Assembly (NCBI GenBank): GCA_046483125.1
Contig: JAWODU010000019.1
Span: forward strand, 1,911 to 65,910
Origin: Kiritimatiellia bacterium
Lineage (GTDB): Bacteria; Verrucomicrobiota; Kiritimatiellia; UBA8416; JAWODU01
Direction of reading: 5' to 3'
DNA length: 64,000 nt
Every line of letters starts with the position of its first letter. Positions within the stretch are counted from its first letter, which is position 1. A model generated the notes under the pieces. It searched no databases and had not been told where the DNA came from. It saw only the letters and a program-made list of their open reading frames with translations. The position numbers and the translations under genes were made by a program. Positions 34,328 to 62,855 of the stretch are shown in pieces.

Positions 34328-35791
34328 CTATTTGCCGGGGTCCCACCTGCCTACGAGCTTCTCGAAGGCAGGGCCGGGAAAGTTCTCCTTGAAAATCCTG
34401 TAATACCACATTTCCTTCGGAGAATTGAGCCTGTAACCGCCTTCCGTGTTCCGGCTCTCTTCCGTGAATGCGTCCTTTTCGAGCTTCCTGCCGGCTATTT
34501 CGTCCATCAGGTCGTCCGTTCCCGTACCGGCGGAAAATCTCAGTTTGACCCTCCTGTATATTCTGTCGGGCAGAAGGTCTCTGAAAGCTTCGCGAAGTAT
34601 CCATTTTTCCACGAGCGTACCGTTCCCGGACGGATGAATTTTCCATTGCACAGGCGCTGAGTCCGCGAAAGCTATCACGTGCGGATCGATGAAAGGAGTC
34701 CTGTAATTTATGCCGTTACCCATCATCGCCCTGTCTAGCCGCTGTACGGCAGTGTTGTAAGCTATGGCCACGAGCTTGTGCATCATATGCAGGCGGTCGA
34801 GATCCGTGGGCAGTTCCTTCAGAAGATGATATCCTCCGAAAAGCTCGTCTCCCCCTTCCCCGCTCAAGATGCAGTTTGTGAATCCGCTTGCCAGCCTGGA
34901 AGCGAACAGATTTGATATCGCCCCGCTGACGCAATCCTCGTCGAATGATTCCAGGATCCGGACCGCTTCCGGCACCATTGTCTCTATTTCCGAAGCGTCG
35001 AAAATGTGGACCTCGTGTTTCATGTTAAGGTGTTTAGCCATCAGTTCCGCGTTCTCCAGGTCCTGCGCCCCTTCCACCCCAACGGTCACCGCGGGCACTT
35101 CCGCTCCAATCTCTCTTGCCGCGGCGGCTATTACCGAACTGTCCAGGCCGCCGCTCAGAAGGCAGGCGCCGACGGCCCCGTCCTCTATGCGGCGTTTCAC
35201 CGATTCGCTGAGAATTACGCGCAGTTTTTCAGCGGCTTCCCCCGCTTCGGCCGGCATGGTTATGTCCGGCTGGCGCGCCACGTACCCGCCGGTTCCGTGC
35301 CTCGCCGAATACGTAGTTGAAGGATGCATTTCCCACACGTCCTCAACCAGCCCGGACAGCGCCTTCATTTCGGAAGCGAAACACAGCGCGCCGTTCTTAG
35401 CCGTTCCAGCGTACAGGGGACGCACACCGACGGGATCCCTGGCAAGAACCACGTCTTTGCCGTCGTAAACCGCGCTGGCGAATACCCCCTCCAGATAGGC
35501 GGGAAAAGCCAGTCCGTGTTTCTCAAACTCATCCATCACAACATCCGCGTCGGACTGTCCCCGCGGCCGGTCGTTGTAAATTTCCCCATCCAGCAAAACA
35601 GCAATGTTGTCCTTTTGGGTAAACCCGTTCCCCCGCGCCGGAGAAAGACGCCCGGCGCAGACACCCAGGGCCGCCTGTTCGTACTGCCTGATTTCACGGC
35701 TGTCGGCTCCCCGGTGCCGCATGGTTTCGATCATACCGGCTGCACGTTCTTTATCGCTTCCCGCCCCGAACATTCCCGCTATTCCCGCCAT
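34328..35791 (-). CDS. Asparagine-synthase-family amidotransferase homologue lacking the N-terminal Cys nucleophile
   Basis: 487 aa. Starts MAGIAG rather than MCGI. SGGLDSS PP-loop ATP pyrophosphatase motif. Its stop overlaps the downstream start by 1 nt. Confidence 0.8.
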   Translation of the reverse strand: MAGIAGMFGAGSDKERAAGMIETMRHRGADSREIRQYEQAALGVCAGRLSPARGNGFTQKDNIAVLLDGEIYNDRPRGQSDADVVMDEFEKHGLAFPAYLEGVFASAVYDGKDVVLARDPVGVRPLYAGTAKNGALCFASEMKALSGLVEDVWEMHPSTTYSARHGTGGYVARQPDITMPAEAGEAAEKLRVILSESVKRRIEDGAVGACLLSGGLDSSVIAAAAREIGAEVPAVTVGVEGAQDLENAELMAKHLNMKHEVHIFDASEIETMVPEAVRILESFDEDCVSGAISNLFASRLASGFTNCILSGEGGDELFGGYHLLKELPTDLDRLHMMHKLVAIAYNTAVQRLDRAMMGNGINYRTPFIDPHVIAFADSAPVQWKIHPSGNGTLVEKWILREAFRDLLPDRIYRRVKLRFSAGTGTDDLMDEIAGRKLEKDAFTEESRNTEGGYRLNSPKEMWYYRIFKENFPGPAFEKLVGRWDPGK

Positions 35792-35821: not shown

Positions 35822-36715
35822 TCAGAGCAGGCCCTGCTCTTTCAGAAACTGTTCCGCCACTTCTTCCGGTTCGCGTTTTTTTTCATCGACCTGGTAGTTG
35901 AGCTTTCTCATCGTCTTATCGTCAATCAAACCGCCGAGACGTTCCAGGGCATCGACCGCGTCCGGATACTTCTCTTTAAATTCAATGCGAATTACCGGGG
36001 CCGCGAAATACGGCGGGAAGAACTGCTTGTCGTCTTTCAGTTTTTGCAGATTGTAAGCGGCAATGCGTCCGTCGGTGGCAAAGGCGCAGATTACGTCCAC
36101 GTTGCCCTGCTCCGCCGCTTCATACATGATCCCGGGGTCCATGTCCATGGTGTTCCCGAAATCAAGCCCGTAGCGGTTCTTGAGACCGGGGTACCCGTCC
36201 TCACGTTCCATGAATTCGGCCGTGAATCCGGCCGTCAGGGTATCGCCAATGGCCCCGAGGTCGCTTATGGTGTCCAGGTTTTTTTCTTCGGCGAAGCTTT
36301 CGCGGACCGTTATGGCGTAAGTGTTGTTGAAGCCGAAGGGTTCCAGCCAGTCGCATTGATAGCGCTCCCTGTAAGCCCGGTCCACAGCCTCGTACGCTTC
36401 TTCGGGGTCCCGTATCACGTCTTTTTTCAGAATGGCCGTCAGGGCGGTTCCTGTGTATTCGGCGTACACGTCAAGGCTTCCGGATTCCAGCCCTCCGTGG
36501 CAGATCATTGTGCCTCCGAGGTTGAACACTCTCTTAACGTCCATGTCTGTTTCCGCCTCGATCACAAGGGCCATCAGTTCGCCCAGTATCAGCTGTTCGG
36601 TAAAGTTTTTCGACCCTACCCGGATAACGCCTTCCGTGTTGCCGCCGCCGCATCCGGATCCGGCTAGAATCGCGGCCGCCGCCGCGCACGCCGTTATGTT
36701 TTTTATTATATGCAT
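35822..36715 (-). CDS. Glycine betaine/quaternary-amine ABC transporter substrate-binding lipoprotein (OpuAC/ProX-like)
   Basis: 297 aa with a LAGSGC lipobox and IRVGSKNFTEQLILGEL typical of OpuAC. Confidence 0.85.
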   Translation of the reverse strand: MHIIKNITACAAAAAILAGSGCGGGNTEGVIRVGSKNFTEQLILGELMALVIEAETDMDVKRVFNLGGTMICHGGLESGSLDVYAEYTGTALTAILKKDVIRDPEEAYEAVDRAYRERYQCDWLEPFGFNNTYAITVRESFAEEKNLDTISDLGAIGDTLTAGFTAEFMEREDGYPGLKNRYGLDFGNTMDMDPGIMYEAAEQGNVDVICAFATDGRIAAYNLQKLKDDKQFFPPYFAAPVIRIEFKEKYPDAVDALERLGGLIDDKTMRKLNYQVDEKKREPEEVAEQFLKEQGLL

Positions 36716-36728
36716 AACTTAACTCCCG

Positions 36729-37370
36729 TTATTCCGACTGCCTCAGTTTCTTTTTCAGTGCTTTCTCCGCGAGATGGAGCAGAAAATCGACCAGCAACGC
36801 CAGTATCGAAGCCCCGACGACTCCCAGCAGTATGAGGTCGCGACTGCGTATGCTGAGTCCGCGGTTAATGAAATCGCCCAGGCCTCCGGCGCCGATAAGC
36901 GTGGAAAGTGTCGCGATACCGATATTGATCACGGTCGCCGTGCGGATGCCGGCCATGATAATGGGTGAAGCAAGCGGCAGTTCCACCTTCCATAACCTCT
37001 GTGTACGGGTATATCCCAGGCCGTTGGCGGCTTCCAGAATGGCCGGGCCCACATTCTGAAGCCCAGCATAGGTGTTGCGCACAATAGGCAGAAGCGCGTA
37101 TAGCACCAGCGCCGTAAAGGCGGGAAGAAAGCCCATCGCGTTCATCCATACCTGCAGGAGGGCCAGCATGGCCAGACTGGGGATGGTCTGCACGACCCCC
37201 GCGATCCCCATCACCGGGCCGGCAAGCTTTTGATGCCGCCCCACCAGCATGCCAAGCGGCACGCCCACGGCCACGGCGAGCCCGCAGGCCGAACCCACCA
37301 GCAGTACATGCTCCAGTGTTTTACTCAGCAACATCGTGTGCCGTTCGGCGATAAGGTTCAGGAATTCCAT
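36729..37370 (-). CDS. ABC transporter permease (OpuAB/ProW-like)
   Basis: 213 aa with 5-6 TM helices and a BPD-transporter EAA-like loop. Confidence 0.85.
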   Translation of the reverse strand: MEFLNLIAERHTMLLSKTLEHVLLVGSACGLAVAVGVPLGMLVGRHQKLAGPVMGIAGVVQTIPSLAMLALLQVWMNAMGFLPAFTALVLYALLPIVRNTYAGLQNVGPAILEAANGLGYTRTQRLWKVELPLASPIIMAGIRTATVINIGIATLSTLIGAGGLGDFINRGLSIRSRDLILLGVVGASILALLVDFLLHLAEKALKKKLRQSE

Positions 37371-38128
37371 GACGCTTCCCGGTTAAGCTGTTTCAGTTGA
37401 TTCGCCGGTTTTTCAAACAGGCTTTTTACAAAATCGGAGGCGGGGCGCTGAAGGATGTCATCTTTTGTCCCTACCTGTTCCAGCCGGCCCTCATGCATCA
37501 CCGCCACGCGGTCGGCCAGTGTCAGCGCTTCGAAAATATCGTGGGTAACGAAAATAATCGATTTGCTGATTTCCCTCTTCAGCGAAAGGAATTCCTGCTG
37601 AAGCTCGTCCCTGGTCAGCGCGTCCAGGGCGCCGAAAGGCTCGTCCATCAGGAGGTATTTCGGATCGGCCGCCAGACCCCGCGCAACTCCCACCCGCTGT
37701 TTCTGTCCCCCGGAAAGCTGATCGGGGTATTGAGAGCCGTACCGGTCGGGGGGCAGTTTAACCAGCTCCATAAGCTTCCGTGAACGATCACGGCGTTTCT
37801 GCCGGTCCCAGCCAAGAAGGCGCGGCACGGTTTCAATGTTTTCCTCAACGGTCATGTGAGGAAACAGGCCGATGCCCTGGAAAACATATCCGATGGACCT
37901 GCGAAGTTCTACCTCGTCGCGGTCCATGATATTCCGGCCGTCCACCGTAATGATACCGCCCGAAAGTTCAATCAGGCGGTTGATCATCTTGAGCGTGGTG
38001 GTCTTGCCGCATCCGGAGGACCCCAGCAGAACGAGCGTTTCATCCTCTTCAACGGTCAGGGAAACGCCGTCCACCGCGTATGTACTGCCGCCGTCAAAGG
38101 ACTTTCTGACTTCCTCGAGCTCAATCAT
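37358..38128 (-). CDS. ABC transporter ATP-binding protein (OpuAA/ProV-like, no CBS domains)
   Basis: 256 aa. Walker A GSSGCGKTT, signature LSGGQKQRV and Walker B LLMDEP. Confidence 0.9.
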   Translation of the reverse strand: MIELEEVRKSFDGGSTYAVDGVSLTVEEDETLVLLGSSGCGKTTTLKMINRLIELSGGIITVDGRNIMDRDEVELRRSIGYVFQGIGLFPHMTVEENIETVPRLLGWDRQKRRDRSRKLMELVKLPPDRYGSQYPDQLSGGQKQRVGVARGLAADPKYLLMDEPFGALDALTRDELQQEFLSLKREISKSIIFVTHDIFEALTLADRVAVMHEGRLEQVGTKDDILQRPASDFVKSLFEKPANQLKQLNREASWNS

Positions 38129-38976
38129 GTCCGGGATTCCGTCGAAGGCGTTTTGAGGGTGAAGTCCTCGGGAATTTCTCCGAACCTGACGAGACCTTCG
38201 ATAATTCCCGAAACATAGTAACCATTCAATTCGCCCATTCCCTCCGCCACCCGCAGGAGATGCTCCATGCCGTTTGAACGCATTGCCTCTTTCACGGCGG
38301 TTTTTACTTCGGGAATGGCGTTTCGCACTACTATGGCCCTGTACCCCGCCGTCAGGGGAAGCAGATCGTTCCCGCTGTCTCCGCAGTAAATAATTTCCTC
38401 TTTTTGAACTTTCATGGATCCCCGCAGGTATTCCAGAGCTTCAAGTTTACTGGCGGCGCGAGGCAGTACGTCCAGAAGACCCCGGCCCCTTGTTTCGTCG
38501 ACGCTGTAGATAACGCGGAAATCCGGACAGATCTCTCCAATAGCTTTCTTTACCGCTTCGACAGTATCGGACCCCTTTTCCGGATGGTCCAGGTAATAGC
38601 TCAATTTGAACTCGTTCTGATTCCGCGCTTCCTGGAGCCGGAGATCCGCCAGCGAGGCCAGGGCGTTTTTGAAAGCTTCGACGTCCCAGTTGCGCGTCGA
38701 TTCCTCGATTAAACGGATGTACCCTTTGTCTTCGGTGAACTCCCTTCCGTCCAGGTCGTATATTTTCGTGCCCACCTCCGCCACCGCGTACAGCGGCAGG
38801 GGAGGATCGTATTTTTCCATGCCTTCGAGTATCTGGTCGCGGTTGCGGCCGGTTACGTAAATCAGCGGAATTTCCCGTTTGCGGACGATTTCGCCGAACA
38901 GCCGCATGGAGTTATCGTATTCCTGTTTCCCGTTGGGGAAAAGGGTCCGGTCCAGGTCGGTGGCAATCACCGTCAT
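38125..38976 (-). CDS. HAD-IIB phosphatase, sucrose-6-phosphate-phosphatase-like
   Basis: 283 aa. DLDRTL (DxDxT) motif and an SPP-like cap. Translationally coupled to the flanking genes. Confidence 0.7.
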   Translation of the reverse strand: MTVIATDLDRTLFPNGKQEYDNSMRLFGEIVRKREIPLIYVTGRNRDQILEGMEKYDPPLPLYAVAEVGTKIYDLDGREFTEDKGYIRLIEESTRNWDVEAFKNALASLADLRLQEARNQNEFKLSYYLDHPEKGSDTVEAVKKAIGEICPDFRVIYSVDETRGRGLLDVLPRAASKLEALEYLRGSMKVQKEEIIYCGDSGNDLLPLTAGYRAIVVRNAIPEVKTAVKEAMRSNGMEHLLRVAEGMGELNGYYVSGIIEGLVRFGEIPEDFTLKTPSTESRT

Positions 38977-38991: not shown

Positions 38992-41508
38992 TTACTCTTC
39001 AAGGATTTCCTTGATGTCTCTTGTGCACATCCCGGGCGAAGCCTGGCAGATGTAAAGGCCGATCTGTTCGTACCCCCCGCATTCCTGGCTGTACGGCAGG
39101 AACTCGAAGAAGAGACCCGCGCCCGGACCGTTGGCCGTCGTAACGTTGAAAGCGACTTCCCGGCCCAGCATAAGCAGTATTCTGTGCATCGCCCTTGAAG
39201 CATCGTGCCAGCCCTGGGCCACGGCCTCCAGTTCCTGGTCGTTCAGCTCGAAAATGTGGGACTTCTCCGTGTCTTTCACCAACAGCATCATGTCGTAGGG
39301 ACGGCGCATGAAGTAAGGCACGGCCAGGACTGCCGGGCCGTAGTCACGCAGGGTGAATTCCGGAGGATTTGTCTCCTGCATGTAAGCGGAAAAGAATTTG
39401 CCTTCCTTTTCCCGGAATTTCACCAGGTCGTCGTTTCTCCGCGGCATGACGTTGGCGTAGACTATCTGCTGATGGCCGTGGGCTATCGATCCGCCCACCA
39501 GCCGCCCGTGATTTTTGATAATTGAAACGTACCTGTCTTCCCGCCCTCCGTTATCCCCGGAAAGCAGAACTTTTTCCAGCTTCCCCAGTCTCCGCATAAC
39601 TATTTTACAGTCCGATACCGGCATATTGTGCCAGTCCCTGTCCTGGTAGGAAGAAGTCCACTGCAGAAAATGACAGCCGGACACTTCTTTTCCCTCCGGA
39701 CCGCCGCCGGTCTTCGAGCCCTTCTGTTTCCGGCTTTCCTTTCCGTCGGGACAGACCACGGGAAACAGGTTGAAGTTTATGAACGTGAAACCCTGGCTCA
39801 GATCCGCGACGTCCACAGCCCCGGTGGTCTTTCCCTTGGAAATAATGGAAGGGGCCCTGTTGGGATCCTCCTGGGGCGCTTCTTCCACGTTCCCCGATTC
39901 GTGGGGCCGGCGGGCCCTTGCCAGACTGTACAGGATGCGGTCGCCGTTACGCGGGTCGACCTGGTATCTTTTTTCGGGCCGGTAATCCCCGATATCGGGC
40001 TCTTCCTTCGCCAGTTTTATAATCCCGTCCCGGTCCAGTCTTTCGATGTTTTCGTTGCGGAGTATGCCCTTCAGTTTGTCGCGGGAAAAAGAAAAGCGAA
40101 TCTGCAGTTCAACCGGCTTCAGTTCTATCCCGATGCTTTTCAGGAACTGGGTGCTCAGGTTCTCCCATGTAAAATGAGGTATCGTGATATTGTAGGCTTT
40201 TCTGCCCATCTCCCTGCGCAGTGAATCGTCGCTCAGCAGTATTTCCAGCGCGCCGGCGAAGCCTTCAACGCTGTTGGCCGGCACCACAATGACCCCGTCT
40301 CCCCGCCGCACCTTTTCTCCGCCGTCTACAGGCACCTCTTCGGCTTCCCTGCCCAGGAGATGCTCCACGGCGAACGGAACAAGGTCGCTCGCCACGGCCG
40401 GAACGCCCGTGGCCGCCGCCTCCTCAACCGACATTCCGAAGCCTTCCATTACCGAAGGCGTGCAGTACACACTGCTTGCCGCGTATATCTTCGGAAGAAC
40501 GTCCCATACCGAACCGACGACTATGACGTCGTCCTCCACTTTCAGCTCCGAAATCAGCCCTCGAAGTTTCTGGGCCAGTTCCCTCTTGTTGTCGTCTATG
40601 GAGACTACAAGGAGGCTGTCTTCCGCCTTTTCATGCATCCGGGCGAAGGCGCGAATCAGAATGTCCTTCTTCTTGGTGTCGTCGGTCCTGCTGATCTCGG
40701 TTATGATCCTGCGCTTCTTTATTTCTTCGGGCTTCAGGCGGCTGTGCTCGCTGAAGAAGCACCATATCTCGCTGTCGTGAGAGAGGTCCGCGGGGTGAAA
40801 ACGCCTGGGATTGACGCAGGGCGGCAGAAAGAGATCGGTGTCGTATTCGTAATCGTTTTTCAGCGAATCTCTGATAACCGATGACGTGGCGGCGATATCG
40901 TCCACGGTTTTGACGATGCCTTTTTCTTCCTCTATGCGTTCGTCGATGCGCAGGGATTCCCATGTGGACCGGTCTACGTTGCGTTTCTTCAGCGCTCCCA
41001 GGGAATGGGGTATCCAGATGTGCTTCTGATTGTACGGCAGGCGCTGATTCAGCAGAAGGCCCAGCTTCGCCCCGTCCCAGTAATGGGAAATGATCAGATC
41101 TACCTGCGTGTCCTCCTGTATCACGTACTGTTCCAGGTTTTCCGCCAGTTTCGGAAGCTGTTCATTCATGTCTTCCTTGCGGACGAATTCCTTTTTGTCG
41201 TCCTCGACGTATAGAATCCTCTGGAGTTCGTCCTGATAATCGAGTCCCCTCCGCAGAAGCCCCGTGTTGGGATGCAGATAACCTCCCCTGTTTACTATGG
41301 TGACCTTGAACCCGGCCCTGACCAGGGCGTGTGTCATCTGGTTGACGAAAACGTTCTGCCCTCCCGTGTCGGGAAGTCCCGGTATGACGTCCCACTGATG
41401 AATACCGTGATTGGTTATCATCAGCAGATGGGGGCGTTTTGAAGCCAGAAAATCCTTGTGAAATCTTCTCCTGCGAATCTGCCTTTCGGACTGCGGAATA
41501 TCCAGCAC
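38992..41508 (-). CDS. Fusion protein: sucrose-phosphate-synthase-like GT4 glycosyltransferase plus C-terminal GalT-like (HIT superfamily) nucleotidyltransferase domain
   Basis: 838 aa. The N-terminal HGIHQWDVIPGLPDTGGQNVFV is the SPS/GT4 hallmark. The C-terminal KNHGRLVGGSIAHGHQQIVYANVMPRRNDDL aligns with the GalT active-site region (NPHPHGQIWAN) and an upstream Cys pair. Confidence 0.7.
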   Translation of the reverse strand: MLDIPQSERQIRRRRFHKDFLASKRPHLLMITNHGIHQWDVIPGLPDTGGQNVFVNQMTHALVRAGFKVTIVNRGGYLHPNTGLLRRGLDYQDELQRILYVEDDKKEFVRKEDMNEQLPKLAENLEQYVIQEDTQVDLIISHYWDGAKLGLLLNQRLPYNQKHIWIPHSLGALKKRNVDRSTWESLRIDERIEEEKGIVKTVDDIAATSSVIRDSLKNDYEYDTDLFLPPCVNPRRFHPADLSHDSEIWCFFSEHSRLKPEEIKKRRIITEISRTDDTKKKDILIRAFARMHEKAEDSLLVVSIDDNKRELAQKLRGLISELKVEDDVIVVGSVWDVLPKIYAASSVYCTPSVMEGFGMSVEEAAATGVPAVASDLVPFAVEHLLGREAEEVPVDGGEKVRRGDGVIVVPANSVEGFAGALEILLSDDSLRREMGRKAYNITIPHFTWENLSTQFLKSIGIELKPVELQIRFSFSRDKLKGILRNENIERLDRDGIIKLAKEEPDIGDYRPEKRYQVDPRNGDRILYSLARARRPHESGNVEEAPQEDPNRAPSIISKGKTTGAVDVADLSQGFTFINFNLFPVVCPDGKESRKQKGSKTGGGPEGKEVSGCHFLQWTSSYQDRDWHNMPVSDCKIVMRRLGKLEKVLLSGDNGGREDRYVSIIKNHGRLVGGSIAHGHQQIVYANVMPRRNDDLVKFREKEGKFFSAYMQETNPPEFTLRDYGPAVLAVPYFMRRPYDMMLLVKDTEKSHIFELNDQELEAVAQGWHDASRAMHRILLMLGREVAFNVTTANGPGAGLFFEFLPYSQECGGYEQIGLYICQASPGMCTRDIKEILEE

Positions 41509-41541: not shown

Positions 41542-42993
41542 TTACTCAAAAACCGATACCGCCGGGGTAAGCCTTCCCTCCACCAGGCGCAATAGCTGTT
41601 GGGCTATGCCCGTCCACGTGAACAGACTGCGGACCTTTCGCGCTCCGTGCATGGAAAGCCTCTGCCTGATGTCCGCGAACTGCAGGATTTTCGTTACGGC
41701 TATGCCGAAATCCTCCGAGTCCAGCGGGTCCGCGTAAAGAGCTTCTATCCCGTAGGCTATTGTTCTGTACAGCCCGCCCCGCGTGGTGACTACCGTGGGC
41801 GTGCCGCAGGCCATGGCCTCCACCGCCGTCATGCCGAAAGGTTCGTACCTGCTTGGAACCGCGAATACGTCCGCGGCCCTGTAATAATCCGCCATGGCCT
41901 CGTCCGGCAGGGAGCCGGATATCCGCACTCTGTCTTCGAGCCTGTACTTCCTCACCAGCCCGTGCAGTTCCTCGCACATCGGATCTTCGGTGCTCTTGTC
42001 GTCCTCTTTGCCCACCGCCAGTCTTAAACGTGCCTTGGGTATGCGTTTGGCCGTCACCGCGAAGGCGTCTATAAGAAGATCGAACCCCTTGTTGCGGCTC
42101 AATCGACCTATTGAAGCCACCACTGGTCCCTCGTAGCCGAAGTCGCCGCGAATACGCCGTCTCATGGGTTCACCCACAGGGTAAAACCGGCTGTCGTCGT
42201 AGCCGGGCGGAATCATGCGCACTCCGTCCCGCGGCACCTCGTAATCTTTTTTCAGCATGTCTATCTGCATCGGAGAAGTGGCGATCACCATATCGGCGTC
42301 GCGGTAAAGAAGGCGTTCGTTATGAATGCGCTCGGTGAAATTGTAAGTCTTGTCCAGTTCCTCTTCCGACGCCGAACCGTCCGCCTGCATCTGCCTCTTT
42401 TTCCACAAGCCCAGCGAATGCGGCGTGTGCACGTGCGGAATATCAAGCGCCGCGGCCATCTTCTGCCCTGCCATGCCGCCGTCCCAGTAGTGACTGTTCA
42501 CGAACTGGTAAGTCAGGCCGTTGTCCCTGATATATCTCAGGGCGCGCTCTCCCCACTCGCCCAGTTCCCTGTACAGGTGCTCTTTGGGTATGAAATCACG
42601 GCCGCCGCAGGGTATTCGAATAATACGTACGTTCTCGGCGACTTCCTCGGTTTCGGGCTGGTCCTCGAACCGCCTGGTCCAGATATCCACCCTGTATCCC
42701 AGCTCGGCGAGTTTTACGGACAGCTCCAGGAGATAAACCACCTGTCCCCCCGTATCCGGTGCGCCCAGCGGCGGCTCGGCGGCCACGTACCCGTGAGTCG
42801 ACACCATTGCTATCCCCTCGCGGGCCTCTCCGGGTTCGTCGTGTTTCCTTATCGGTGTGAATTCTTCTCTTTCCACGGACATCCCTTCTCCTTCCCCATT
42901 GTCTCCGCTTACCGTTTCCGGTTCCATGGAATGCTCAATTGCGGCTTCCTCGTCTTCTTTCATGACAACTGCGCTTTCCGCCCCGCCGGCCAC
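41542..42993 (-). CDS. Sucrose-phosphate-synthase-like GT4 glycosyltransferase (catalytic domain only)
   Basis: 483 aa. APDTGGQVVY motif and a GT-B retaining-GT pattern (EPFGMTAVEAMACG). Confidence 0.8.
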   Translation of the reverse strand: MAGGAESAVVMKEDEEAAIEHSMEPETVSGDNGEGEGMSVEREEFTPIRKHDEPGEAREGIAMVSTHGYVAAEPPLGAPDTGGQVVYLLELSVKLAELGYRVDIWTRRFEDQPETEEVAENVRIIRIPCGGRDFIPKEHLYRELGEWGERALRYIRDNGLTYQFVNSHYWDGGMAGQKMAAALDIPHVHTPHSLGLWKKRQMQADGSASEEELDKTYNFTERIHNERLLYRDADMVIATSPMQIDMLKKDYEVPRDGVRMIPPGYDDSRFYPVGEPMRRRIRGDFGYEGPVVASIGRLSRNKGFDLLIDAFAVTAKRIPKARLRLAVGKEDDKSTEDPMCEELHGLVRKYRLEDRVRISGSLPDEAMADYYRAADVFAVPSRYEPFGMTAVEAMACGTPTVVTTRGGLYRTIAYGIEALYADPLDSEDFGIAVTKILQFADIRQRLSMHGARKVRSLFTWTGIAQQLLRLVEGRLTPAVSVFE

Positions 42994-43003: not shown

Positions 43004-44293
43004 CTACCGTTTGTCTATTTCCAGTATACCCACCAGTCCATGCGCGCATCCCTGACCCTGTTGAAGTTTTGTGGCCACGTGCCTCAGCGCGTAACCGAGC
43101 TGAGGTTCGATAATATTTTCCCTCGGAAGACCCATACCCAGCCACCCCGTGCCCTGAATGACTCTCTGCATTCTCCTCAGCATGTCGCGTACCGGCTCCG
43201 GGGCCGCGGGCAGAGGTTCCGGCAGGGGGCCCCCGAACCTTTCGCTTTCCTCGTCGAACAGTTCAAGCAGTTCGGCCGTGTAGCTTATCAGGTAGTTCCA
43301 GCAGGCCTGCATATTCTCGAAATACCTGTTCAGAAAGTCAAAACCCTGCCTGGGGACGTAATCAATCTTAACATTCTGCAGGTCGGTCCGCACATTCACC
43401 TCGTGAAGCGAGTTGATGCCGCTCCGGATAGGCTGTGCGTACGGGTTGTAGTCGCCGGTGTCCATATGGCGCCCGGTAAAAATGGACCTGTCGTAAAAAC
43501 ATACGGGGTTGATCTTCACGCGGGCACGGCGGCTTGCTTCAGTTATGATATTCTCCGCTTCCGCGCGGCTCATTAATCTCAGCGTCAGGTGTTCCAGCTC
43601 GCTTCGCCTCGCTTCCCGCTCATCCTCGTCATAGATATAGGACACCACGTAGTCCATGTTCTTCAGTTCCGAGGGCTCTTTTTTCCACAAACTCTGCCAC
43701 TCGTACGAATACCGCCCTATCCAGTCGCAGTGCACAATAGTGTAATTCCTCGCCTGCGAAGCGATATCGCATAAAAGCTGGATCATCGTCTCATCGTCAT
43801 TGAGATGCGAACAGGTCCCGAATGACGAAAAATAAAGATCATACGGATCCTCGCCGTCCACCGCGGGCAGTCCTTGTGTGAAATCGCCTTGTTCAAACAT
43901 CACTTTCGGCTCGTTCCCGTAGATTCCAGCGGCCTGGTCCAGCAGGTCCCTGTTGAGATCGACGCCCTTGTAAAGTCCAAGGACATCGGGCGAAAGCAGG
44001 TCCGTTTCCACCTGCTGTAGATCGGCGTCACGCTGACGTACACCCGCCAGGAGCTCGTAACCGTCCGCGCTCCCACAGCCAAGGTCCAGGATTCTCACCC
44101 TTCTCAGGTCCCGCCTGCAGTTCTTTATCAGCTTCAACAGATACGGGCGGAGATAATGACGCGTGATTTCGTCCTCCCAGAACCGCCGCACGTTGTCGTA
44201 TTTGCCTACAAGCCCGGATTTCTTCGCGTAAAGCCCGCTTTTCACCGCTTCGGTATAAGCAGACATCTGGTCGTTTTCGGGGTTTTCGCTCAC
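43004..44293 (-). CDS. Class I SAM-dependent methyltransferase
   Basis: 429 aa with motif I ILDLGCGSADG. The substrate is unknown. Confidence 0.65.
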   Translation of the reverse strand: MSENPENDQMSAYTEAVKSGLYAKKSGLVGKYDNVRRFWEDEITRHYLRPYLLKLIKNCRRDLRRVRILDLGCGSADGYELLAGVRQRDADLQQVETDLLSPDVLGLYKGVDLNRDLLDQAAGIYGNEPKVMFEQGDFTQGLPAVDGEDPYDLYFSSFGTCSHLNDDETMIQLLCDIASQARNYTIVHCDWIGRYSYEWQSLWKKEPSELKNMDYVVSYIYDEDEREARRSELEHLTLRLMSRAEAENIITEASRRARVKINPVCFYDRSIFTGRHMDTGDYNPYAQPIRSGINSLHEVNVRTDLQNVKIDYVPRQGFDFLNRYFENMQACWNYLISYTAELLELFDEESERFGGPLPEPLPAAPEPVRDMLRRMQRVIQGTGWLGMGLPRENIIEPQLGYALRHVATKLQQGQGCAHGLVGILEIDKR

Positions 44294-44302
44294 GATATAC
44301 TC

Positions 44303-45778
44303 CTATTTCAGTGTCTGCGGCAGTATGCCCGGTATTTCTCTTCTGATGTGCTCCGCCACTTCATCGGGCAGAGGATTGCGTTCCTGCTCCATGATCTGCT
44401 CGTACTGCCGGTGCGCGGCCCAGAGTGCTCCATGCTCTTCGTCTTCCAGCGGGTACTTTACGTAAACGGACTCACGGGACGGGAGCGGAAGGTGGTAGAT
44501 AAAGGTTTTCTGGTCTTCCGCCATTACTTCCCTGATCGTGGAAAGGACTTCTTCGGTCCCGTCCTCGGAAAAGCCGGGCTCCTTGAGCATATGCTTAATG
44601 AACCCTATGTGGGCGTCGTCCATGACCGCCTGTTCCGGGCAGAAAATGTTGGTCCTTTCCAGGAGACCGAAGGCGTAATGAATGTACTGGGCGCCCCCGC
44701 GCGGCACCGAAGCCAGCGTCAGGATCTTTTCAGCCGTCGCCTGTATGCCCGGAGCGGGCGCATCCGCCACACCCGCCGTGGAATAACACGGAATGCCGTA
44801 GAAGCGCGCCATCTGCGCGCAGTCGATATTGTAGTGGCTGAATTCGGGCGCGCCGTACATGTCGTTCAGGTTGTCGAGCCTCGTGCGCACGGGAACGGCG
44901 CCGTAGAGTATGGAACTGCCGGGCTGGACCATCTGGTTGAGTGTTATGCCGGCGAGCAGTTCCGCGTTTATCAGCGCCGTCATGCCGAATTCGTCGAACG
45001 GTCCCGTGGCCCCTCCCATGGGACAGCTCGATATGACAACGGGCTGGCGCCGCCTGGCTATTTCCATAAACGTCTCCGCCGTGTCCTCCACCAGCTGTAA
45101 AGGGCTCTTGACCGCACAGCAGATAAACGAAATCACCGGATTGGTCTTGAAAGCTTCCTTCCCGCCGGCCACTATTTCGGCCATTTTCAAGACTTCGTCG
45201 AGCGAGTCGATATCCGTCAGTCCGGCCTGAACGTGCTTCGTTATGTTGTTAAGGCTGGCCAGGAACTTGTTCACGTCCTTGTTGCGTGCGGTAACTTCCT
45301 CATCCTGAATGTTGACACAGCGGATGAAGAAGTCGAGATTGGGCAGATGATCGCACAGATGGGCGGCCCTGCACAGCCGTTGGATGGAACCGTTCTCTCT
45401 GCTGAATACCGGCTTGCCGTCTTCAAAAGAGACGTCCAGCCATATGTTCGTCTCCGACCCGCTCCCGAACCGCACGCGCGGCTCCCCGGCATTCAGGATA
45501 AGCCGGTTGTCCGGGTTTCTCGCGCCCAGCACCACCGTGGAAGGCGCCGATTCCACCGCCCTGCTTACCATGTCGGACGGAATGCGGACACGACTGCAGT
45601 CTTTGGCGTCTTCAACCGCCGCGCCGGCCTTTTGGAATACCTTCGCGGCCTTTTCGTTGTAACACAGAAGCCCGGGATCCTGGAGCATCTCCCTGGATGC
45701 CGCGTCTACCTGGGCAATCTGCTTCTCCGAGAGTCGCAGGTAGGGTTTTACGAGCACTCCCTCACGCTGTTTCTTCAT
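44303..45778 (-). CDS. MttB-superfamily (non-pyrrolysine) quaternary-amine:corrinoid methyltransferase homologue 1
   Basis: Roughly 490 aa from the ATG at 45778 (MKKQREG...). TIM-barrel MttB-family similarity and no in-frame amber codon. The track ORF extends to 45859. Confidence 0.8.
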   Translation of the reverse strand: MKKQREGVLVKPYLRLSEKQIAQVDAASREMLQDPGLLCYNEKAAKVFQKAGAAVEDAKDCSRVRIPSDMVSRAVESAPSTVVLGARNPDNRLILNAGEPRVRFGSGSETNIWLDVSFEDGKPVFSRENGSIQRLCRAAHLCDHLPNLDFFIRCVNIQDEEVTARNKDVNKFLASLNNITKHVQAGLTDIDSLDEVLKMAEIVAGGKEAFKTNPVISFICCAVKSPLQLVEDTAETFMEIARRRQPVVISSCPMGGATGPFDEFGMTALINAELLAGITLNQMVQPGSSILYGAVPVRTRLDNLNDMYGAPEFSHYNIDCAQMARFYGIPCYSTAGVADAPAPGIQATAEKILTLASVPRGGAQYIHYAFGLLERTNIFCPEQAVMDDAHIGFIKHMLKEPGFSEDGTEEVLSTIREVMAEDQKTFIYHLPLPSRESVYVKYPLEDEEHGALWAAHRQYEQIMEQERNPLPDEVAEHIRREIPGILPQTLK

Positions 45779-45866
45779 GACTTCCCTTCTGTTTTCTTTT
45801 TTCGGAATAGGTCCCACGGTTGCCACAGCAGTTGCCATGCGCCCCGGCCGCGGAGACACGATCGCC

Positions 45867-47333
45867 TCATTCTACACCGGGTGTACGGATCTCCGGGCAG
45901 GTTTTCAGAATATCGCTCCGCAGAGACGGCTCTATCAGTTCGGGCGCCTGCCCCTTGCGCACCTCGGCCACGAAGGCCCTTGCCCTGGACAGGGCGTCGT
46001 CATCCGGCCCCATGCTTTCGCGCCTGTCCCGGTTGGAGAGTTTCGGCTCGAAAAATTCGCCGCGCATATATCTGATCGTGTGCTCCTCCGCGAGGTAATC
46101 TTTCCCCGGCCCCTTTTTGATCATTACGTCGGTTGCCAGGGTGCCCCTGTCCACCTCGATTCCCCTGAGTACTCTCTGGCACATCCCCAGTATTTCGTTG
46201 TCCATCGCAAGCTTTTCGTAGGAGACCGTAAGGTCCGTTTCCATCAGCCCGGCAATATCGTGAATATAATTCGCCCCGCTCATGGCCACCAGCAGACTGG
46301 ACATTGCGCTCTCGTACGCCGCCTGGATATCCACTTCTTTGGCGTCGGTCGTTCCGCCGGTCGAATACAGAGGTATCTCGAAATACTGGGCCATTTGAGA
46401 AACCGCGGCGTTTATCATGGCCCTTTCTATGGCGCCGCCCACGTGGTTCATGGTGCGGAGATTCGTGACCGATCCCACGCTCCCGCATATGCCGGGAGCC
46501 CCCCTGCGCACCGACTGAACCAGCGCTATCCCGCCGAGTGTTTCGGCAATGTGGGTCAGGACGTTCCCGGCCAGTGTTATCGGAGATGTGGTTCCGCATA
46601 TCGGCTCGGTAGGCATTACAACCGGCAGGCCCTTCCCCGCAAGGTAACAGCTTATTTCGCCGTAGTGGTCGTCTATTTTAAAAGGGCTGATAACCAGCGT
46701 AATGAAAGATACAAATGGCTTCTCGGCCAGCGCCTCGGCGCCGCCGGCCAGTTTTTCCGCGATTTCAACGGCCCGACGGCATCCGTTCATGGTGTATATA
46801 CCGCCCATCACGTGCTTGGTGGTGTTGTCAAAGGCATGAAAGAACCGGTTGGCGTCGATTTCCTCCCTCTCTTCTATGTCGTTGGGAAACACGTTAATGG
46901 TAAAAAGATGGATATTCTCAAGAGCCTGCACCATACGGGCGTTAAGTATGACGTCGGTAACCGTCGAAGGCCGCCTTTCCCCGGTGTCAGGGTCCAGTAC
47001 GTATATCGCCGTTCCCCCGGTGCCGTAATGGACGCGGTTTTTTTCGAGCACGCAGTCGGTTTTTCCGTCACGCGAGTAAAGAGTTACGCTTGAAGGGTTG
47101 GAGGAAACCGCGTCTTCAACCAGGCTCCGGGACAGCTTGACCGTGGACGTTTCCTCGTCAACTTCGGCTCCCGCATTCCTGAAGGCCTCCCTTGCGGCCT
47201 TTGAATAGACCAGCATGCCCGCCTTTTCCAGAATCTCGAAAGCCGATTCGGCTATTTCCTTTACATCCCGGTCCGAAAGGGGCCTGTACAGCGATGACCT
47301 GAGCCCGTGTTTTTCATGTTTCAATTCAGTCAT
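45867..47333 (-). CDS. MttB-superfamily (non-pyrrolysine) methyltransferase homologue 2
   Basis: 488 aa, paralogue of the downstream gene. No adjacent corrinoid-protein gene is visible. Confidence 0.8.
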   Translation of the reverse strand: MTELKHEKHGLRSSLYRPLSDRDVKEIAESAFEILEKAGMLVYSKAAREAFRNAGAEVDEETSTVKLSRSLVEDAVSSNPSSVTLYSRDGKTDCVLEKNRVHYGTGGTAIYVLDPDTGERRPSTVTDVILNARMVQALENIHLFTINVFPNDIEEREEIDANRFFHAFDNTTKHVMGGIYTMNGCRRAVEIAEKLAGGAEALAEKPFVSFITLVISPFKIDDHYGEISCYLAGKGLPVVMPTEPICGTTSPITLAGNVLTHIAETLGGIALVQSVRRGAPGICGSVGSVTNLRTMNHVGGAIERAMINAAVSQMAQYFEIPLYSTGGTTDAKEVDIQAAYESAMSSLLVAMSGANYIHDIAGLMETDLTVSYEKLAMDNEILGMCQRVLRGIEVDRGTLATDVMIKKGPGKDYLAEEHTIRYMRGEFFEPKLSNRDRRESMGPDDDALSRARAFVAEVRKGQAPELIEPSLRSDILKTCPEIRTPGVE

Positions 47334-51013: not shown

Positions 51014-53971
51014 TCAGAACCTGTTGAGGGTCACGCCGAACAGGCACATGAAAAGTTCACCCAGTATCAATCCGATAAACATGGCGCGAAACTGGGCGTA
51101 GGTCCGGTTGTCGCCGTACTTGCTGACCATCGTCTTGAACAGCCAGCCCAGCAGAATGGAAAACCAGTACTGCCACATCAGCGGGTTGACCCACATTATC
51201 AGGCCGATAGGGTGCGGAAGCCAGAAAACGCGCTGGCGCAAGAATATCAGCGCCCCCATCACGATAACGCCGGTAAGAAGCCAGTACTTGCCGCCGGCCA
51301 CGTCCGTGGGCTCACTCTGGGCCATGTTTTTGATCTCGCTGAATATGTCCGTAAGGGCGGTGCTGTAGAACCACCCATGCATTCCGTCGGCCCCGTTTTT
51401 GTATCCCAGAATAATGTGAGTGGCAATGGCAACGACGGTGGCCGCCAGAATGCCGAATGCCACCGCGGTGTGGAACCTGAGGCGTCCCATTTTCACGTTG
51501 TCCCTCACCTTGAGCGCGTTGGCCATGGCCGGGGCTATGAAAGCCTTTATGTCCCAGAAGAAAATATACAGGTAGCACACCAGCGGAGCCAGAAGCGGAG
51601 CGGCGGTCCAGGCCTTGTTCATGCCGACAACGTGCCTGATAAGGTGAAACGGTCCGAAGAAACACTGGAATCCCAGCAGGCCCCCCTCCGTCACCGCCCT
51701 GACCAGCCCGATCGTGATAACCAGCACTACCAGGTAAACGAAAATGGAAAAGTAGATGTTGGCGCCCAGCCCCCAGGTCAGCACTCCTACCAGCCCCGCG
51801 GAACAGAAAACAAAGAGAAAGGACGAAATCCTGAGTTCCGTGCGCTCCGGCTTCTCCAGTTCGGAGACGGCCCCGGGCCTGAACGCGCAGAAAAGGTACT
51901 GGCGGCATTTCCACAATATCACCGCGGCGAACGCGGTGAGGGCGCCTCCGCCTATGGCGGTACGGAAATTCAGGAGCGAAGTCATGCCCTTGGGAAAGGA
52001 ATTCAGGTTTTCCCCGTAGCCCATCCACACCAGCACGAGCGTCAGGACCATGAAAACAAGATGAAAGAACCAGAGGGAAAAGGATATCTTTGCCGGAATC
52101 AGGAAGGTGAGACCTACCAGCGTAAAAATTATCTGATGGTGGGCGTTAGGTAAGAGCCCCGCAAACGGGCTGTTCTGAATGTACGGCGTCCAGTCATACC
52201 TGAGAGCTATATCACCCGCTCCGGGAATAATCTGCTTTGTGGCCAGCAGGTTCCACCCCATAACCCCTATGGATATCGCCGCACCCGTCCAGAACATTCC
52301 GTTTCTGTAAAGCGCCGGTACCCGTCCGCCGTTCTCGTCGTAGGCGCCGCTGAGATAAGTGGGCAGTTCCGCCAGAGGATAGATCAATTTCTCGTTATAG
52401 GCCCACTGGCGGAATATCAGGACGTTAAACGTCATGAGCACCGTATAGGTAAGGAGAATCACCACCGCCCACTTCGCGAGAGGGCCGACCCACTTTTTCC
52501 ACGGCACGTTACCGGCCGCGAAAGTGCGCAGGTCGCCGTCGAAAGTCCTGAACGCGGCCATTTCCGATTCGATCTTTTCGACAAGAGCGGGGCAACCCCC
52601 GGGCACCGCCGTTTCGGACTCGGCCGAAAGTTCCTCAAGGTTTTCCATGGTCTCGGCAACGACCCCGGCGGTCGCCAGGGACGGTTTCACTTTGCGGTCC
52701 AGTCTGGAGTTAAGCGATTCAAGATTTTTCTTCTTCTTGTCTACCCACTTCTGTACTTTCTTTATTCTCCTGGTAAGCTCTTCGGCAGTTTCGTCCATTG
52801 CGTACCGTCTCTGCTCCCTGAGCAGTCTCAAGTGCTTTTCTTCGTCCCCTATCTCCTCGCGCAGGTTGTTTATTTTCGCTTCCAGGTCCGCCTGGCGCTC
52901 TTCAAGTTCGGGAAGACCTGCCAATGGTTCAAGCATTCCGGCGGCTTCGGCAATCAATGCCGCCGCCTCTTTGCCCGTCCGGGGCCCTGAACTGTCTTCA
53001 AGCATGCTGCGGGCCTTTTCCAGCAACTCGAGCGAGTCGGTGCCGCGGCTGAAACGGCGTACGCGGTACATGTACGAGTGAAGTCCCTCTCCGGGATCGT
53101 ATATGAACCCGGGCACAGCCCGCAGTTCGCCCGGAAGGCCCCTGCGGAATTGCTCCACGGTTTCAAAAGTGCCGGCCTTTGCCTCGGCCAGTTCCCCGGC
53201 GCGTTCGTCCTTTGTCTCCTGAAGTAACCGGATTTTTTCCGGAAAAGTATCCAGGACTTTCCCGCGGTTGTACTCGCCTTCGTATTCTTTCCAGGCTTCG
53301 CGCGCCCTCTCCAGCGCCTGCCTGATTACCAAAACCTGGTGTCTCAGCGGCTCCGCCCGAAGCGTTCTTTCTTTCTCGTCGGGAATCTTCTCGAGTTCGT
53401 GAAGTTTCGCGGTGACTTCTTCGAGATTTTCCGCCGCCGCCTGCACGTTCGCGGCGGCGCGGTATACCTTCTTTGCCCTGTCCCACTTGAGTTCAGCGTC
53501 CCTTGCCTCGATGGCGGCCTCGCGGATCCCGTCCTCGGCCACGAAGAAGTCGTCGTTGACGTAAGGTTCCACGTAAAGGTCCCAGCGGGACTGCATATTG
53601 TTCCAGTCCGGGTTGAATAGGCCCGAGGTAAGCGGCACGAGCTGTGAAGCCAGCCCGAAAGTGGAAACCCCGCCCGAAACAGCCCCCATAACAAAAACTA
53701 TGAGGAGTTCGGTTGGTGTGAACCTGCGTATGAAGCGGACAAATTTCAGCAGTGGGTTAATCAGCACTACTCCAACGGCAAGCAATATGTAAGGCAGGAC
53801 CGCAATCTGAGTAGAGGTGATGATGTGGCCCGGCACGTTCTCCTGATACACGGTGTACCAGGCAAAAAGACCCGCGAAGATCATGCCCAGCAGAAAGGAC
53901 CGCAGTGTTATGCGGTTCCTCTTCGGCTCCTCGCCCCATTTCCCGGATTTATCTTTCACACCATTACTCAT
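51014..53971 (-). CDS. Large polytopic membrane protein (985 aa) with a roughly 350-aa coiled-coil insertion, paralogue of 54113-56122
   Basis: More than 12 predicted TM helices. The E/K/R-rich heptad-like insert lies between TM helices. The C-terminus VSKYGDNRTYAQFRAMFIGLILGELFMCLFG is homologous to the C-terminus of the upstream paralogue. Confidence 0.6.
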   Translation of the reverse strand: MSNGVKDKSGKWGEEPKRNRITLRSFLLGMIFAGLFAWYTVYQENVPGHIITSTQIAVLPYILLAVGVVLINPLLKFVRFIRRFTPTELLIVFVMGAVSGGVSTFGLASQLVPLTSGLFNPDWNNMQSRWDLYVEPYVNDDFFVAEDGIREAAIEARDAELKWDRAKKVYRAAANVQAAAENLEEVTAKLHELEKIPDEKERTLRAEPLRHQVLVIRQALERAREAWKEYEGEYNRGKVLDTFPEKIRLLQETKDERAGELAEAKAGTFETVEQFRRGLPGELRAVPGFIYDPGEGLHSYMYRVRRFSRGTDSLELLEKARSMLEDSSGPRTGKEAAALIAEAAGMLEPLAGLPELEERQADLEAKINNLREEIGDEEKHLRLLREQRRYAMDETAEELTRRIKKVQKWVDKKKKNLESLNSRLDRKVKPSLATAGVVAETMENLEELSAESETAVPGGCPALVEKIESEMAAFRTFDGDLRTFAAGNVPWKKWVGPLAKWAVVILLTYTVLMTFNVLIFRQWAYNEKLIYPLAELPTYLSGAYDENGGRVPALYRNGMFWTGAAISIGVMGWNLLATKQIIPGAGDIALRYDWTPYIQNSPFAGLLPNAHHQIIFTLVGLTFLIPAKISFSLWFFHLVFMVLTLVLVWMGYGENLNSFPKGMTSLLNFRTAIGGGALTAFAAVILWKCRQYLFCAFRPGAVSELEKPERTELRISSFLFVFCSAGLVGVLTWGLGANIYFSIFVYLVVLVITIGLVRAVTEGGLLGFQCFFGPFHLIRHVVGMNKAWTAAPLLAPLVCYLYIFFWDIKAFIAPAMANALKVRDNVKMGRLRFHTAVAFGILAATVVAIATHIILGYKNGADGMHGWFYSTALTDIFSEIKNMAQSEPTDVAGGKYWLLTGVIVMGALIFLRQRVFWLPHPIGLIMWVNPLMWQYWFSILLGWLFKTMVSKYGDNRTYAQFRAMFIGLILGELFMCLFGVTLNRF

Positions 53972-56122: not shown

Positions 56123-56126
56123 GGTC

Positions 56127-61943: not shown

Positions 61944-62083
61944 TCTTTGAGTTCCCCCGGCCGCGGCTCCGGCGGTTTTTTCTTGCCGCCCTGTTGCCGG
62001 GGCCCTATTAGAAACTTGCCCGGTTGAGTAATTCCATGATATATGAAGTTTTCCTGGGTCAGGTCAAGACGGATTCGAGACTA

Positions 62084-62842: not shown

Positions 62843-62855
62843 AAGGAAAACCATC

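Follow-up and report, generated by a model that had tools for sequence, protein, structure and literature searches.

Two MttB-superfamily paralogues and a predicted methyltransferase form a conserved unit, possibly for osmolyte synthesis, in Kiritimatiellia and other phyla

What do two MttB-superfamily genes do in an operon that holds a methyltransferase and a betaine-type importer, and no corrinoid gene? The question is raised by a 64,000-nucleotide stretch of DNA (the window) from the 68.5-kb contig of a Kiritimatiellia metagenome-assembled genome (GCA_046483125.1, JAWODU010000019.1). An earlier note, made from the letters alone, had described three open reading frames (ORFs) on the minus strand at 43004-47333, and we confirmed all three: the MttB paralogues MttB1 (45867-47333, 488 aa) and MttB2 (44303-45859, 518 aa as the longest ORF), and a 429-aa methyltransferase (43004-44293), hereafter MT, predicted to depend on S-adenosylmethionine (SAM). 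The note had implied, as one option, that the paralogues are demethylases of glycine betaine, proline betaine, carnitine or butyrobetaine. We find that the trio is a fixed unit of wide distribution, whose predicted active sites differ from those of all characterised relatives, and we favour, with a probability of about 0.42, the reading that the cassette builds a compatible solute of the trimethylammonium type.

Support for the idea that the three genes belong together came from a scan in which an alignment of the MT was run against a single genome for each species; it found relatives in 314 species genomes. The best 80 loci were examined, with layouts that were anchored by homology and drawn on all ORFs. 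MttB1, MttB2, and MT are present in these 80 loci wherever the flanking sequence suffices (in the order MttB2-MT-MttB1 in Spirochaetota), and the trio is invariant in the ~95 loci of the kind found in the window (type II, see below). Carriers among the best 80 loci include Kiritimatiellae, Lentisphaerae/Victivallales, many lineages of Planctomycetota, Spirochaetota, Anaerolineales, Latescibacterota, Hydrogenedentota, and others; overall, hundreds of species from at least eight phyla carry the cassette, most of them found in sediments that are saline, sulfidic, or anoxic. Many carriers come from soda-lake, Great Salt Lake, Black Sea, and Zodletone samples, or from other saline or sulfidic sediments. 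Across phyla, MttB1 and MT homologues are 63-78% identical, and MttB1 and MttB2 each form an orthologous group of their own (60-78% identity). The trio is a fixed, conserved unit and no chance neighbourhood, and MT is no bystander in it. The earlier note had missed MT as the third fixed member, which also has the most informative relatives, namely fusions to asparagine synthase and to Usp domains.

Both paralogues belong to the MttB superfamily, with PF06253 scores of 296.7 bits (E 2.6e-88) for MttB1 and 207.6 bits (E 2.6e-61) for MttB2 at a cut-off of 25. They are only 30% identical to each other, which points to old paralogues. In the PDB, MttB1 is closest to MtgB (2qne/9yce, 218 bits), followed by pyrrolysine (Pyl)-containing MttB (7xcl, 180 bits). 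Their description as non-Pyl enzymes is borne out: neither gene has an in-frame stop, the position of Pyl is occupied by Thr (ACG) in MttB1 and Val in MttB2, and both score below the cut-off of 525 bits for the Pyl-containing trimethylamine methyltransferase family TIGR02369 (395.7 and 258 bits, respectively). Nor do their relatives depart from this pattern, as we found no amber codon at the Pyl position in 83 related loci. MttB2 probably starts at the ATG at 45778, behind a Shine-Dalgarno-like site (GAAGGGAAG), which would give a protein of 491 aa. MttB1 contains a match to the Rfam family PYLIS_3 (RF02510) at 46253-46352 on the minus strand, which scores 41 bits where the gathering score is 38. 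The match begins at the codon that corresponds to the Pyl UAG, and the UAG of the model is aligned with the ACG for Thr. Orthologues of MttB1 also score above threshold, at 39-42 bits in type II loci (L020, L024, L029, L045, and L058) and 52-59 bits in type I loci (L099-L120). Judged from these alignments, the match reflects homology of coding sequence and is no functional RNA element, so that such hits in non-Pyl genes are best regarded as false positives for recoding.

To map the active sites, we used PDB alignments and also aligned 60 MttB1 and 75 MttB2 orthologues with MAFFT, taking the pockets of MtgB (PMC13080624) and Methanosarcina barkeri MttB (PMC9842639) as references. In MtgB, glycine betaine is bound by Y97, R312, H348, and F356 (PMC13080624), and all four are replaced in the 60 + 75 orthologues. 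The R312 position (Y329 in MttB) is Tyr in both paralogues, as it is in every one of the 135 orthologues of type II and the 54 of type I. The H348 position (Y364 in MttB) is Asp in MttB1 (60/60) and Tyr in MttB2 (75/75), and the F356 position (G372 in MttB) is Asp in MttB1 and Thr in MttB2. Where M. barkeri MttB has Pyl334, MttB1 has Thr and MttB2 has Val; where it has Met249, they have Glu and Cys/Ser, respectively. The pocket residues of MttB1, and those of MttB2 at the MtgB positions, are invariant across the two sets of orthologues. The least certain position is Y97, aligned with T111 of MttB (Thr or Gly in MttB1, Ser/Thr in MttB2), as the loop shifts between alignment runs. Both paralogues have a Gly-Thr (MttB1) or Gly-Ser (MttB2) loop that may correspond to Gly110-Thr111, its alignment being subject to the same shift; in M. 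barkeri MttB, the Gly110-Thr111 loop contacts the corrin ring, and the active site also includes Tyr364 (PMC9842639).

Compared residue by residue through published alignments, MttB1 and MttB2 appear to match no characterised enzyme of the family. Arg312 is the partner of the substrate's acidic group and is reported to be conserved in MtcB, MtpB, MthB, and MtyB (PMC13080624), and all five characterised non-Pyl members act on acidic quaternary amines (PMC12155760). Given that Arg312 is missing and the other MtgB residues are replaced, known recognition logic predicts that neither paralogue acts on glycine betaine, proline betaine, carnitine, butyrobetaine, or phosphocholine, and the substrates implied earlier are therefore not supported. 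At the two cation-pi positions of MtgB, the paralogues have acidic or Tyr residues in place of aromatic ones, and we infer that their pockets would suit protonatable amines better than acidic quaternary amines.

The third member, MT, is predicted to be a class I SAM-dependent methyltransferase. Its motif I (ILDLGCGSADG) is canonical and invariant, and matches to Methyltransf_25/31 do not reach the gathering score for the protein of the window but are significant for relatives. An AlphaFold model (pLDDT 68, pTM 0.72) gave Foldseek probabilities of 1.00 to many SAM methyltransferases, although only the Rossmann core aligns. The top matches are the small-molecule methyltransferases CysG, Coq5, PfPMT, GNMT, and SDMT, with TM scores to the GNMT/SDMT fold of ~0.23-0.29 (normalised to the query) or 0.33-0.44 (normalised to the target). 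The C-terminal ~230 aa are highly conserved and have no known relative. The earlier note had left the protein unassigned, and it matches no named family: there was no NCBIfam match at E 1e-3 and no meaningful PDB sequence match with either the single sequence or a profile. By sequence, MT falls outside the GSMT/SDMT families and its resemblance to them is at the level of fold alone. A report of horizontal transfer of GSMT in Planctomycetota could not be tied to the cassette MT. The family is small, with 320 representatives among 1.84 billion representative proteins. A role for MT as a SAM-dependent reactivator of a corrinoid protein was set aside, as the type I cassettes described next hold a MetH-type activation domain besides MT.

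The absence of corrinoid genes, noted earlier for the immediate neighbourhood, extends to the whole window, in which no ORF carries the DxHxxG motif of B12-binding proteins, and Pfam/NCBIfam scans of the ORFs gave no match to PF02310/PF02607 (B12-binding), PF00809 (pterin-binding), PF01208 (URO-D), or PF02965 (MetH activation). The same holds for close relatives, with no corrinoid, pterin-binding, or activation gene within 10 kb of the cassette in the ~95 type II loci. The partners of the trio were found in sister cassettes, which we call type I. In L086 and L087, the order is MarR, Met_synt_B12 (MetH activation), an MttB1-like gene, Pterin_bind, an MttB2-like gene, a B12-binding corrinoid protein (motif DLHDIG), MT, and the ABC importer; identities to the window proteins are 42% for MttB1, 52% for MttB2, 45% for MT, 69% for the importer ATPase, and 58% for its binding protein. 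A metagenome scan with the type I MT yielded 69 loci. Among the pooled new metagenome loci, a corrinoid protein lies directly upstream of MT in 38, and the full set of six genes (activation, MttB1, pterin-binding, MttB2, B12-binding protein, MT) is present in 23. The canonical B12 motif, DxHxxG..SxL..GG, is present in 38/39 corrinoid proteins. The layout of a three-component corrinoid system is thus found in type I, in these 38 loci, and not in the window. Downstream, the type I cassette is usually followed by genes resembling asparagine synthase B (AsnB), or by ProA-GCS2 in L149, and then by the importer.

Because type I interleaves genes orthologous to those of the window with corrinoid, pterin-binding, and MetH-type activation genes, we regard the system, from its gene content, as corrinoid-dependent by ancestry and the type II cassette of the window as its reduced form. 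The residues Glu249, Tyr329, and Asp364 of MttB1, and Ser-or-Cys249, Tyr329, Val334, Tyr364, and Thr372 of MttB2, are conserved in both types. Position 372 of MttB1 is an invariant Asp in type II versus Cys/Ala in type I, and its Pyl position is Thr (rarely Met) in type II versus Met/Ile in type I. The MTs of type II form a separate sequence group, with 47% identity to type I compared with 66% within type II. Of the two possibilities raised earlier, a corrinoid component encoded elsewhere or a different function, we therefore favour the former: by analogy, type II would still use a corrinoid protein and a pterin-binding enzyme encoded at a distance.

Several minor observations concern cobalamin and redox genes near the cassettes. 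Searches with Rfam found no cobalamin or other riboswitch upstream of the cassette in the window, in 8 type II loci, or in 8 type I loci. A cobalamin riboswitch (92 bits) lies in L117 at 13182-13382 on the plus strand, ~2.7 kb downstream of the type I cassette and ~2 kb upstream of an ABC ATPase-like gene that may belong to a cobalamin uptake system. The sole match to a B12-binding domain near any type II cassette, a weak one (L057, 6869-8041), is unlike a methyltransferase corrinoid protein, and so is a conserved protein with a CxxxCxxC motif of radical-SAM type that is encoded close to the type II cassette in L055 (3059-4525) and in three other loci. A protein of ~415-430 aa with DUF362 and two [4Fe-4S] motifs is encoded in 11 loci (L011, 7163-8461; L013, 7002-8246; L014, L016, L031, L054, L056, L059, L072, L122, and L149). 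In type II, its gene lies between MttB1 and MttB2, in the slot of the pterin gene of type I, and it could be an electron donor; 10/11 of these loci are of the ProA/GCS2 kind described below, and L016 is truncated upstream.

Two further layouts bear on the role of MT. In type III, MT is replaced by a third MttB paralogue, distinct from the other two; this layout is represented by L161 from Planctomycetota (paralogue at 9221-10684) and L162 from Aminicenantes (paralogue at 8280-9761). The predicted pocket of the third MttB is Cys/Cys/Val/Ser/Val, with cysteines at the M249 and R312/Y329 positions. L162 additionally has a second corrinoid protein, a methylenetetrahydrofolate reductase (MTHFR), and a DUF5981 gene. 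At the other extreme are forms without any MttB: in P0276 and P0284, MT is fused to an asparagine synthase beside an OpuA-type ABC system; in L090, the genes are BON, ProA, GCS2, MT, and ABC; and in P0308, MT is fused to a Usp domain. The cassette, therefore, always has either three methyltransferases, or one (MT) that is able to stand alone. Its constant companions are a module for an amide-forming ligase and, in most loci, a quaternary-amine importer, the latter of OpuB/C type in 87/130 type I and type II loci, many of which are truncated.

The ligase module comes in two kinds. In 156 non-redundant loci, AsnB-like genes (one or two per locus) occur alone in 74 and ProA/GCS2 alone in 26, and in no case were both present. 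ProA is a true glutamate-5-semialdehyde dehydrogenase (530 bits), and GCS2 belongs to the carboxylate-amine ligase family. The MTs are not separated by partner set (identity 0.674 within groups and 0.668 between), and MTs with different partners can be up to 86% identical. Such exclusivity, in combination with similar MTs, suggests that the two sets are interchangeable ways of performing one step, or of supplying one metabolite.

In the window, the trio heads a tightly packed operon that reaches down to 34328, with gaps of 4-33 nt or small overlaps; all its genes are on the minus strand. Separated from MT by a 10-nt gap is a glycosyltransferase of family GT4 that resembles sucrose-phosphate synthase (41542-42993, 483 aa; Glycos_transf_1/Glyco_transf_4; TIGR02472 at 209.6 bits, below cut-off). 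It is followed by a GT4 glycosyltransferase fused to a GalT-like C-terminal region (38992-41508, 838 aa, from Pfam/NCBIfam matches), which is an unusual architecture, and by a hydrolase of the HAD class resembling sucrose-6F-phosphate phosphatase (38125-38976, 283 aa; PF05116, E 1.7e-43). These three genes are probably a sugar-osmolyte module. Homologues lie near the cassette in a few other lineages (L059, 13175-19493, downstream; L048, 1614-3822; L105, 168-1610).

The importer that the earlier note had called adjacent to the MttB genes (35822-38128) does share their operon; the three sugar-osmolyte genes lie between it and MT. It consists of an ATPase of the betaine/proline/choline family, ProV-type (37358-38128; TIGR01186 proV, 311.8 bits), a permease of choline/betaine type (36729-37370; PF00528, TIGR03416), and a substrate-binding protein of the OpuBC/OpuCC class with the OpuAC fold, assigned to quaternary-amine binding by its PDB sequence matches (35822-36715). 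These are the binding proteins of the sensors iAChSnFR and iNicSnFR (E ~1e-73), as well as Bacillus subtilis OpuCC/OpuBC, EgtUC, and ProX, which makes it closest to binders of choline, carnitine, betaine, and ergothioneine. On the basis of these three components, the importer qualifies as an OpuB/OpuC-type quaternary-amine system. The last gene of the operon encodes an AsnB-like enzyme (34328-35791, 487 aa; NF006949 at 304 bits, below cut-off). The protein begins with MAGIAG and is thus without the N-terminal Cys nucleophile, which would make the usual use of glutamine impossible. In related loci, such a Cys-less copy is often paired with a second copy that begins with MCGI (active) or MSG.

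How might these parts work together? SAM-dependent methyltransferases can only methylate, so that the presence of MT points to a role in synthesis and gives it none in demethylation. Biosynthesis of a trimethylammonium-type solute is also favoured because MT appears interchangeable with a third MttB, because the versions without MttB retain the same partners and transporter, because fusions or neighbours with stress domains (Usp, BON) exist, and because the operon of the window also encodes sugar-osmolyte synthesis, from which expression under salt stress would be expected. We therefore propose as a working model that the type II cassette is an osmostress unit for the transfer of three methyl groups to (or from) a single amine nitrogen. 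The amide-forming ligase (AsnB-like in the window, ProA and GCS2 in other lineages) would supply or modify the amine acceptor. MttB1 and MttB2 would exchange methyl groups between methyl-corrinoid, charged from methyl-tetrahydrofolate (methyl-THF), and protonatable amine intermediates, and would probably form a heterodimer, as MttB and MtgB form homodimers; MT would carry out the step that needs a stronger methyl donor, and the importer would recapture leaked product. In the genome of the window, the corrinoid, pterin-binding, and activation parts would be supplied in trans, e.g., by modules of the methionine-synthase type. The precedent is Ruegeria, in which the gene for MtgB is unlinked to those for MtgC and MtgD, two proteins that also serve as modules of methionine synthase (PMC12478193).

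A more specific form of this proposal, which we hold more tentatively than biosynthesis as such, is that the MttB enzymes run in reverse as corrinoid-dependent N-methylases. The result would be a SAM-sparing route to a betaine-type osmolyte, in which methyl groups come from methyl-THF via a cobalamin protein, are transferred by MttB1 and MttB2 (and by a third MttB in some lineages), and SAM is used for at most one step. If true, such a route would explain how energy-limited anaerobes in saline sediments afford methylated organic osmolytes.

A number of considerations weigh against osmolyte synthesis. We know of no corrinoid-dependent N-methylation of an amine. As catalysis would be reversible, the pocket residues do not fix its direction, and by our own rough estimate, transfer from methyl-THF to an amine would be near thermoneutral at best, such that accumulation to molar levels would need the pull of the SAM step or of MTHFR. 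Catabolic clusters, too, classically have an importer with a substrate-binding protein beside their MttB genes. Type III is known from two loci, and the MTHFR of L162 could work in the oxidative direction on methyl-THF, as has been proposed for MetF2 in Ruegeria. The link of AsnB or ProA-GCS2 to MT may reflect parallel osmolyte modules under common regulation and not one pathway. The search for a corrinoid partner in type II covered the 64-kb window and 10 kb around the cassettes of its relatives, and found none. Finally, all six characterised MttB-superfamily enzymes are demethylases (PMC12155760).

That last point also speaks for the main rival, canonical catabolism, which we consider somewhat less likely than synthesis. 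The OpuB/C-type importer would bring in a methylated ammonium compound that has no carboxylate (either choline-like or a methylamine), which MttB1 and MttB2 would demethylate onto a corrinoid protein encoded elsewhere. The methyl group would end on THF, to be used for carbon, for reductant, or for regeneration of methionine and SAM that feeds MT, and MT with the AsnB-like enzyme would be a separate solute-building module. Such a scheme agrees with the type I cassettes, which are laid out precisely like the three-component systems of known demethylases, with an activation module in addition, and with a binding protein whose nearest relatives bind choline, carnitine, and betaine. Precedents exist for MetF working oxidatively, in betaine catabolism in Ruegeria (PMC12478193), and for a substrate-modifying partner enzyme, MthK (PMC12155760). 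However, the scheme leaves the invariant MT without a direct role, does not explain the third MttB that replaces MT in L161 and L162, and does not account for the MttB-less forms that retain the same transporter and the AsnB or ProA-GCS2 partners. Since the genes are co-transcribed with those for sucrose synthesis, they should be expressed under salt stress, a condition in which breakdown of an osmoprotectant would be counter-productive. Moreover, two or three enzymes in series would need to demethylate tertiary or secondary amines, which is not known for non-Pyl enzymes.

A second rival, which we regard as improbable, is that type II has become independent of corrinoid proteins, with the MttB pair serving as a substrate-binding or scaffolding heterodimer for MT, or using free cobalamin directly. 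The lack of corrinoid-related genes in the window and around its ~95 relatives is what such a change would predict, and MtgB does methylate free cob(I)alamin in vitro (PMC13080624). The divergence of the type II MTs from those of type I, the shift of MttB1 position 372 to Asp, and the placement of the DUF362-4Fe4S gene between the two MttB genes (11 loci, 10 of them of type II, where it fills the pterin slot of type I) point the same way. Nevertheless, the other pocket residues are retained, as, it appears, is the Gly-Thr/Ser loop that contacts the corrin ring in M. barkeri MttB (PMC9842639), and there is precedent for corrinoid partners that are not linked (PMC12478193). A catalytic role that has been retained would also be in keeping with the conservation of 64-78% between phyla.

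That the paralogues are ordinary MtgB-type demethylases of glycine betaine (or of proline betaine, carnitine, or butyrobetaine) beside an unrelated methyltransferase is very improbable and, as far as residues can tell, essentially excluded as an MtgB-like function: although Desulfitobacterium hafniense MtgB is the best PDB sequence match and a betaine-type importer lies within the operon, all four glycine-betaine-binding residues, including Arg312, are replaced, MT is invariably linked, and both paralogues stand in orthologous groups of their own. Ergothioneine synthesis was also considered, since GCS2 resembles EgtA, the N-terminal domain of AsnB resembles EgtC, and EgtUC is among the matches of the binding protein, and was rejected for want of any EgtB- or EgtD-type gene and an EgtA score of only 27.8 bits.

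The cassette can be compared with several known systems. It shares its superfamily with the MtgB-MtgC-MtgA system of D. hafniense and Methanolobus vulcani, and type I has the same parts (an MttB-type enzyme, a corrinoid protein, and a pterin-binding methyltransferase), with a betaine-class transporter nearby. In contrast to that system, it has two distinct paralogues instead of one, neither with the MtgB binding residues, a class I methyltransferase that is always attached, and a MetH-type activation module (PF02965); no gene for a RamA-type activase was identified in the cassettes. The window differs further, in that it is without any linked corrinoid or pterin gene. With Pyl-MttB/MttC of M. 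barkeri (PDB 7xcl), the cassette shares Tyr329 in both paralogues, Tyr364 in MttB2, probably the Gly-Thr/Ser loop, and enough similarity in the DNA around the Pyl codon to trigger PYLIS_3. It is set apart by the absence of UAG/pyrrolysine and pyl genes, by the low TIGR02369 scores, and by hosts that are bacterial heterotrophs and not methanogens.

The closest parallel in organisation is the split methionine synthase/MtgBCD of Ruegeria pomeroyi and Phaeobacter inhibens, in which the genes of the MttB-family enzymes lie at a distance from those for a shared cobalamin-binding protein and for a pterin-binding methyltransferase that works in both directions (PMC12478193). The type I cassette likewise resembles a split MetH (pterin, B12, and activation modules) in which MttB proteins replace the homocysteine module. 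Differences are that the Ruegeria/Phaeobacter system relies on RamA/DUF1638 for reactivation, has a proven catabolic role in aerobes (PMC12478193), and is without a SAM methyltransferase, AsnB or ProA-GCS2 partners, or paired MttB paralogues. The phosphocholine system MthB-MthK of Eubacterium limosum is a precedent for an MttB enzyme that is coupled, genetically and functionally, to a substrate-modifying enzyme (PMC12155760); there, however, a kinase makes an acidic substrate for an Arg312 enzyme, whereas the cassette has a SAM methyltransferase and an amide ligase as partners, and no Arg312. Enzymes of SAM-dependent betaine synthesis (GSMT, SDMT, and phosphoethanolamine N-methyltransferase) share the class I fold with MT, small-molecule N-methyltransferases being among its best structural matches, as well as an osmolyte-related role and a betaine transporter that is often nearby. 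In contrast to these, MT has no detectable membership of their sequence families, carries ~230 additional conserved residues, and is invariably associated with MttB paralogues or amide ligases.

Our literature search found no paper that describes the cassette; the paper on Kiritimatiella glycovorans merely predicts glycine betaine and sucrose as osmoprotectants. Corrinoid methyltransferases are a known theme, and the new features are the two MttB orthologous groups with a different pocket, the obligatory class I methyltransferase, the MetH-type activation, and the interchangeable AsnB or ProA-GCS2 partners. The superfamily is very large, and the substrates of six members are known, five of them acidic quaternary amines. 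Metagenomic surveys that score PF06253 as "trimethylamine/glycine betaine methyltransferase" will count genes of the MttB1/MttB2 type. To judge from the pockets of their products, neither substrate is likely to be used by them in Kiritimatiellia, Planctomycetota, Lentisphaerae, or Spirochaetota. A series of natural variants runs from MT alone, through two MttBs and MT with or without linked B12 genes, to three MttBs, and it opens the system to experiment. Taken together, the variants suggest that a methylated osmoprotectant is made by a pathway that had not been recognised before, possibly with folate and cobalamin, instead of SAM, as the methyl source.

Outside the operon, a tRNA gene at 19857-19929 (minus strand) borders a stretch of low G+C content that extends to 22400 (0.484 in the 20001-22000 bin, compared with ~0.57 elsewhere). 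The stretch holds short ORFs, including one for a DUF6941 protein (20161-20589), and may be a small integrated element. Several very large ORFs with few or no annotated domains lie on the minus strand: one of 2012 aa without a Pfam match (1932-7970), one of 985 aa with DUF6785/DUF6784 (51014-53971), and two at 54113-61511 of 669 and 1794 aa, the longer with an FtsX-like permease domain, which adjoin genes for an ABC ATPase and FtsX at 62024-63557.

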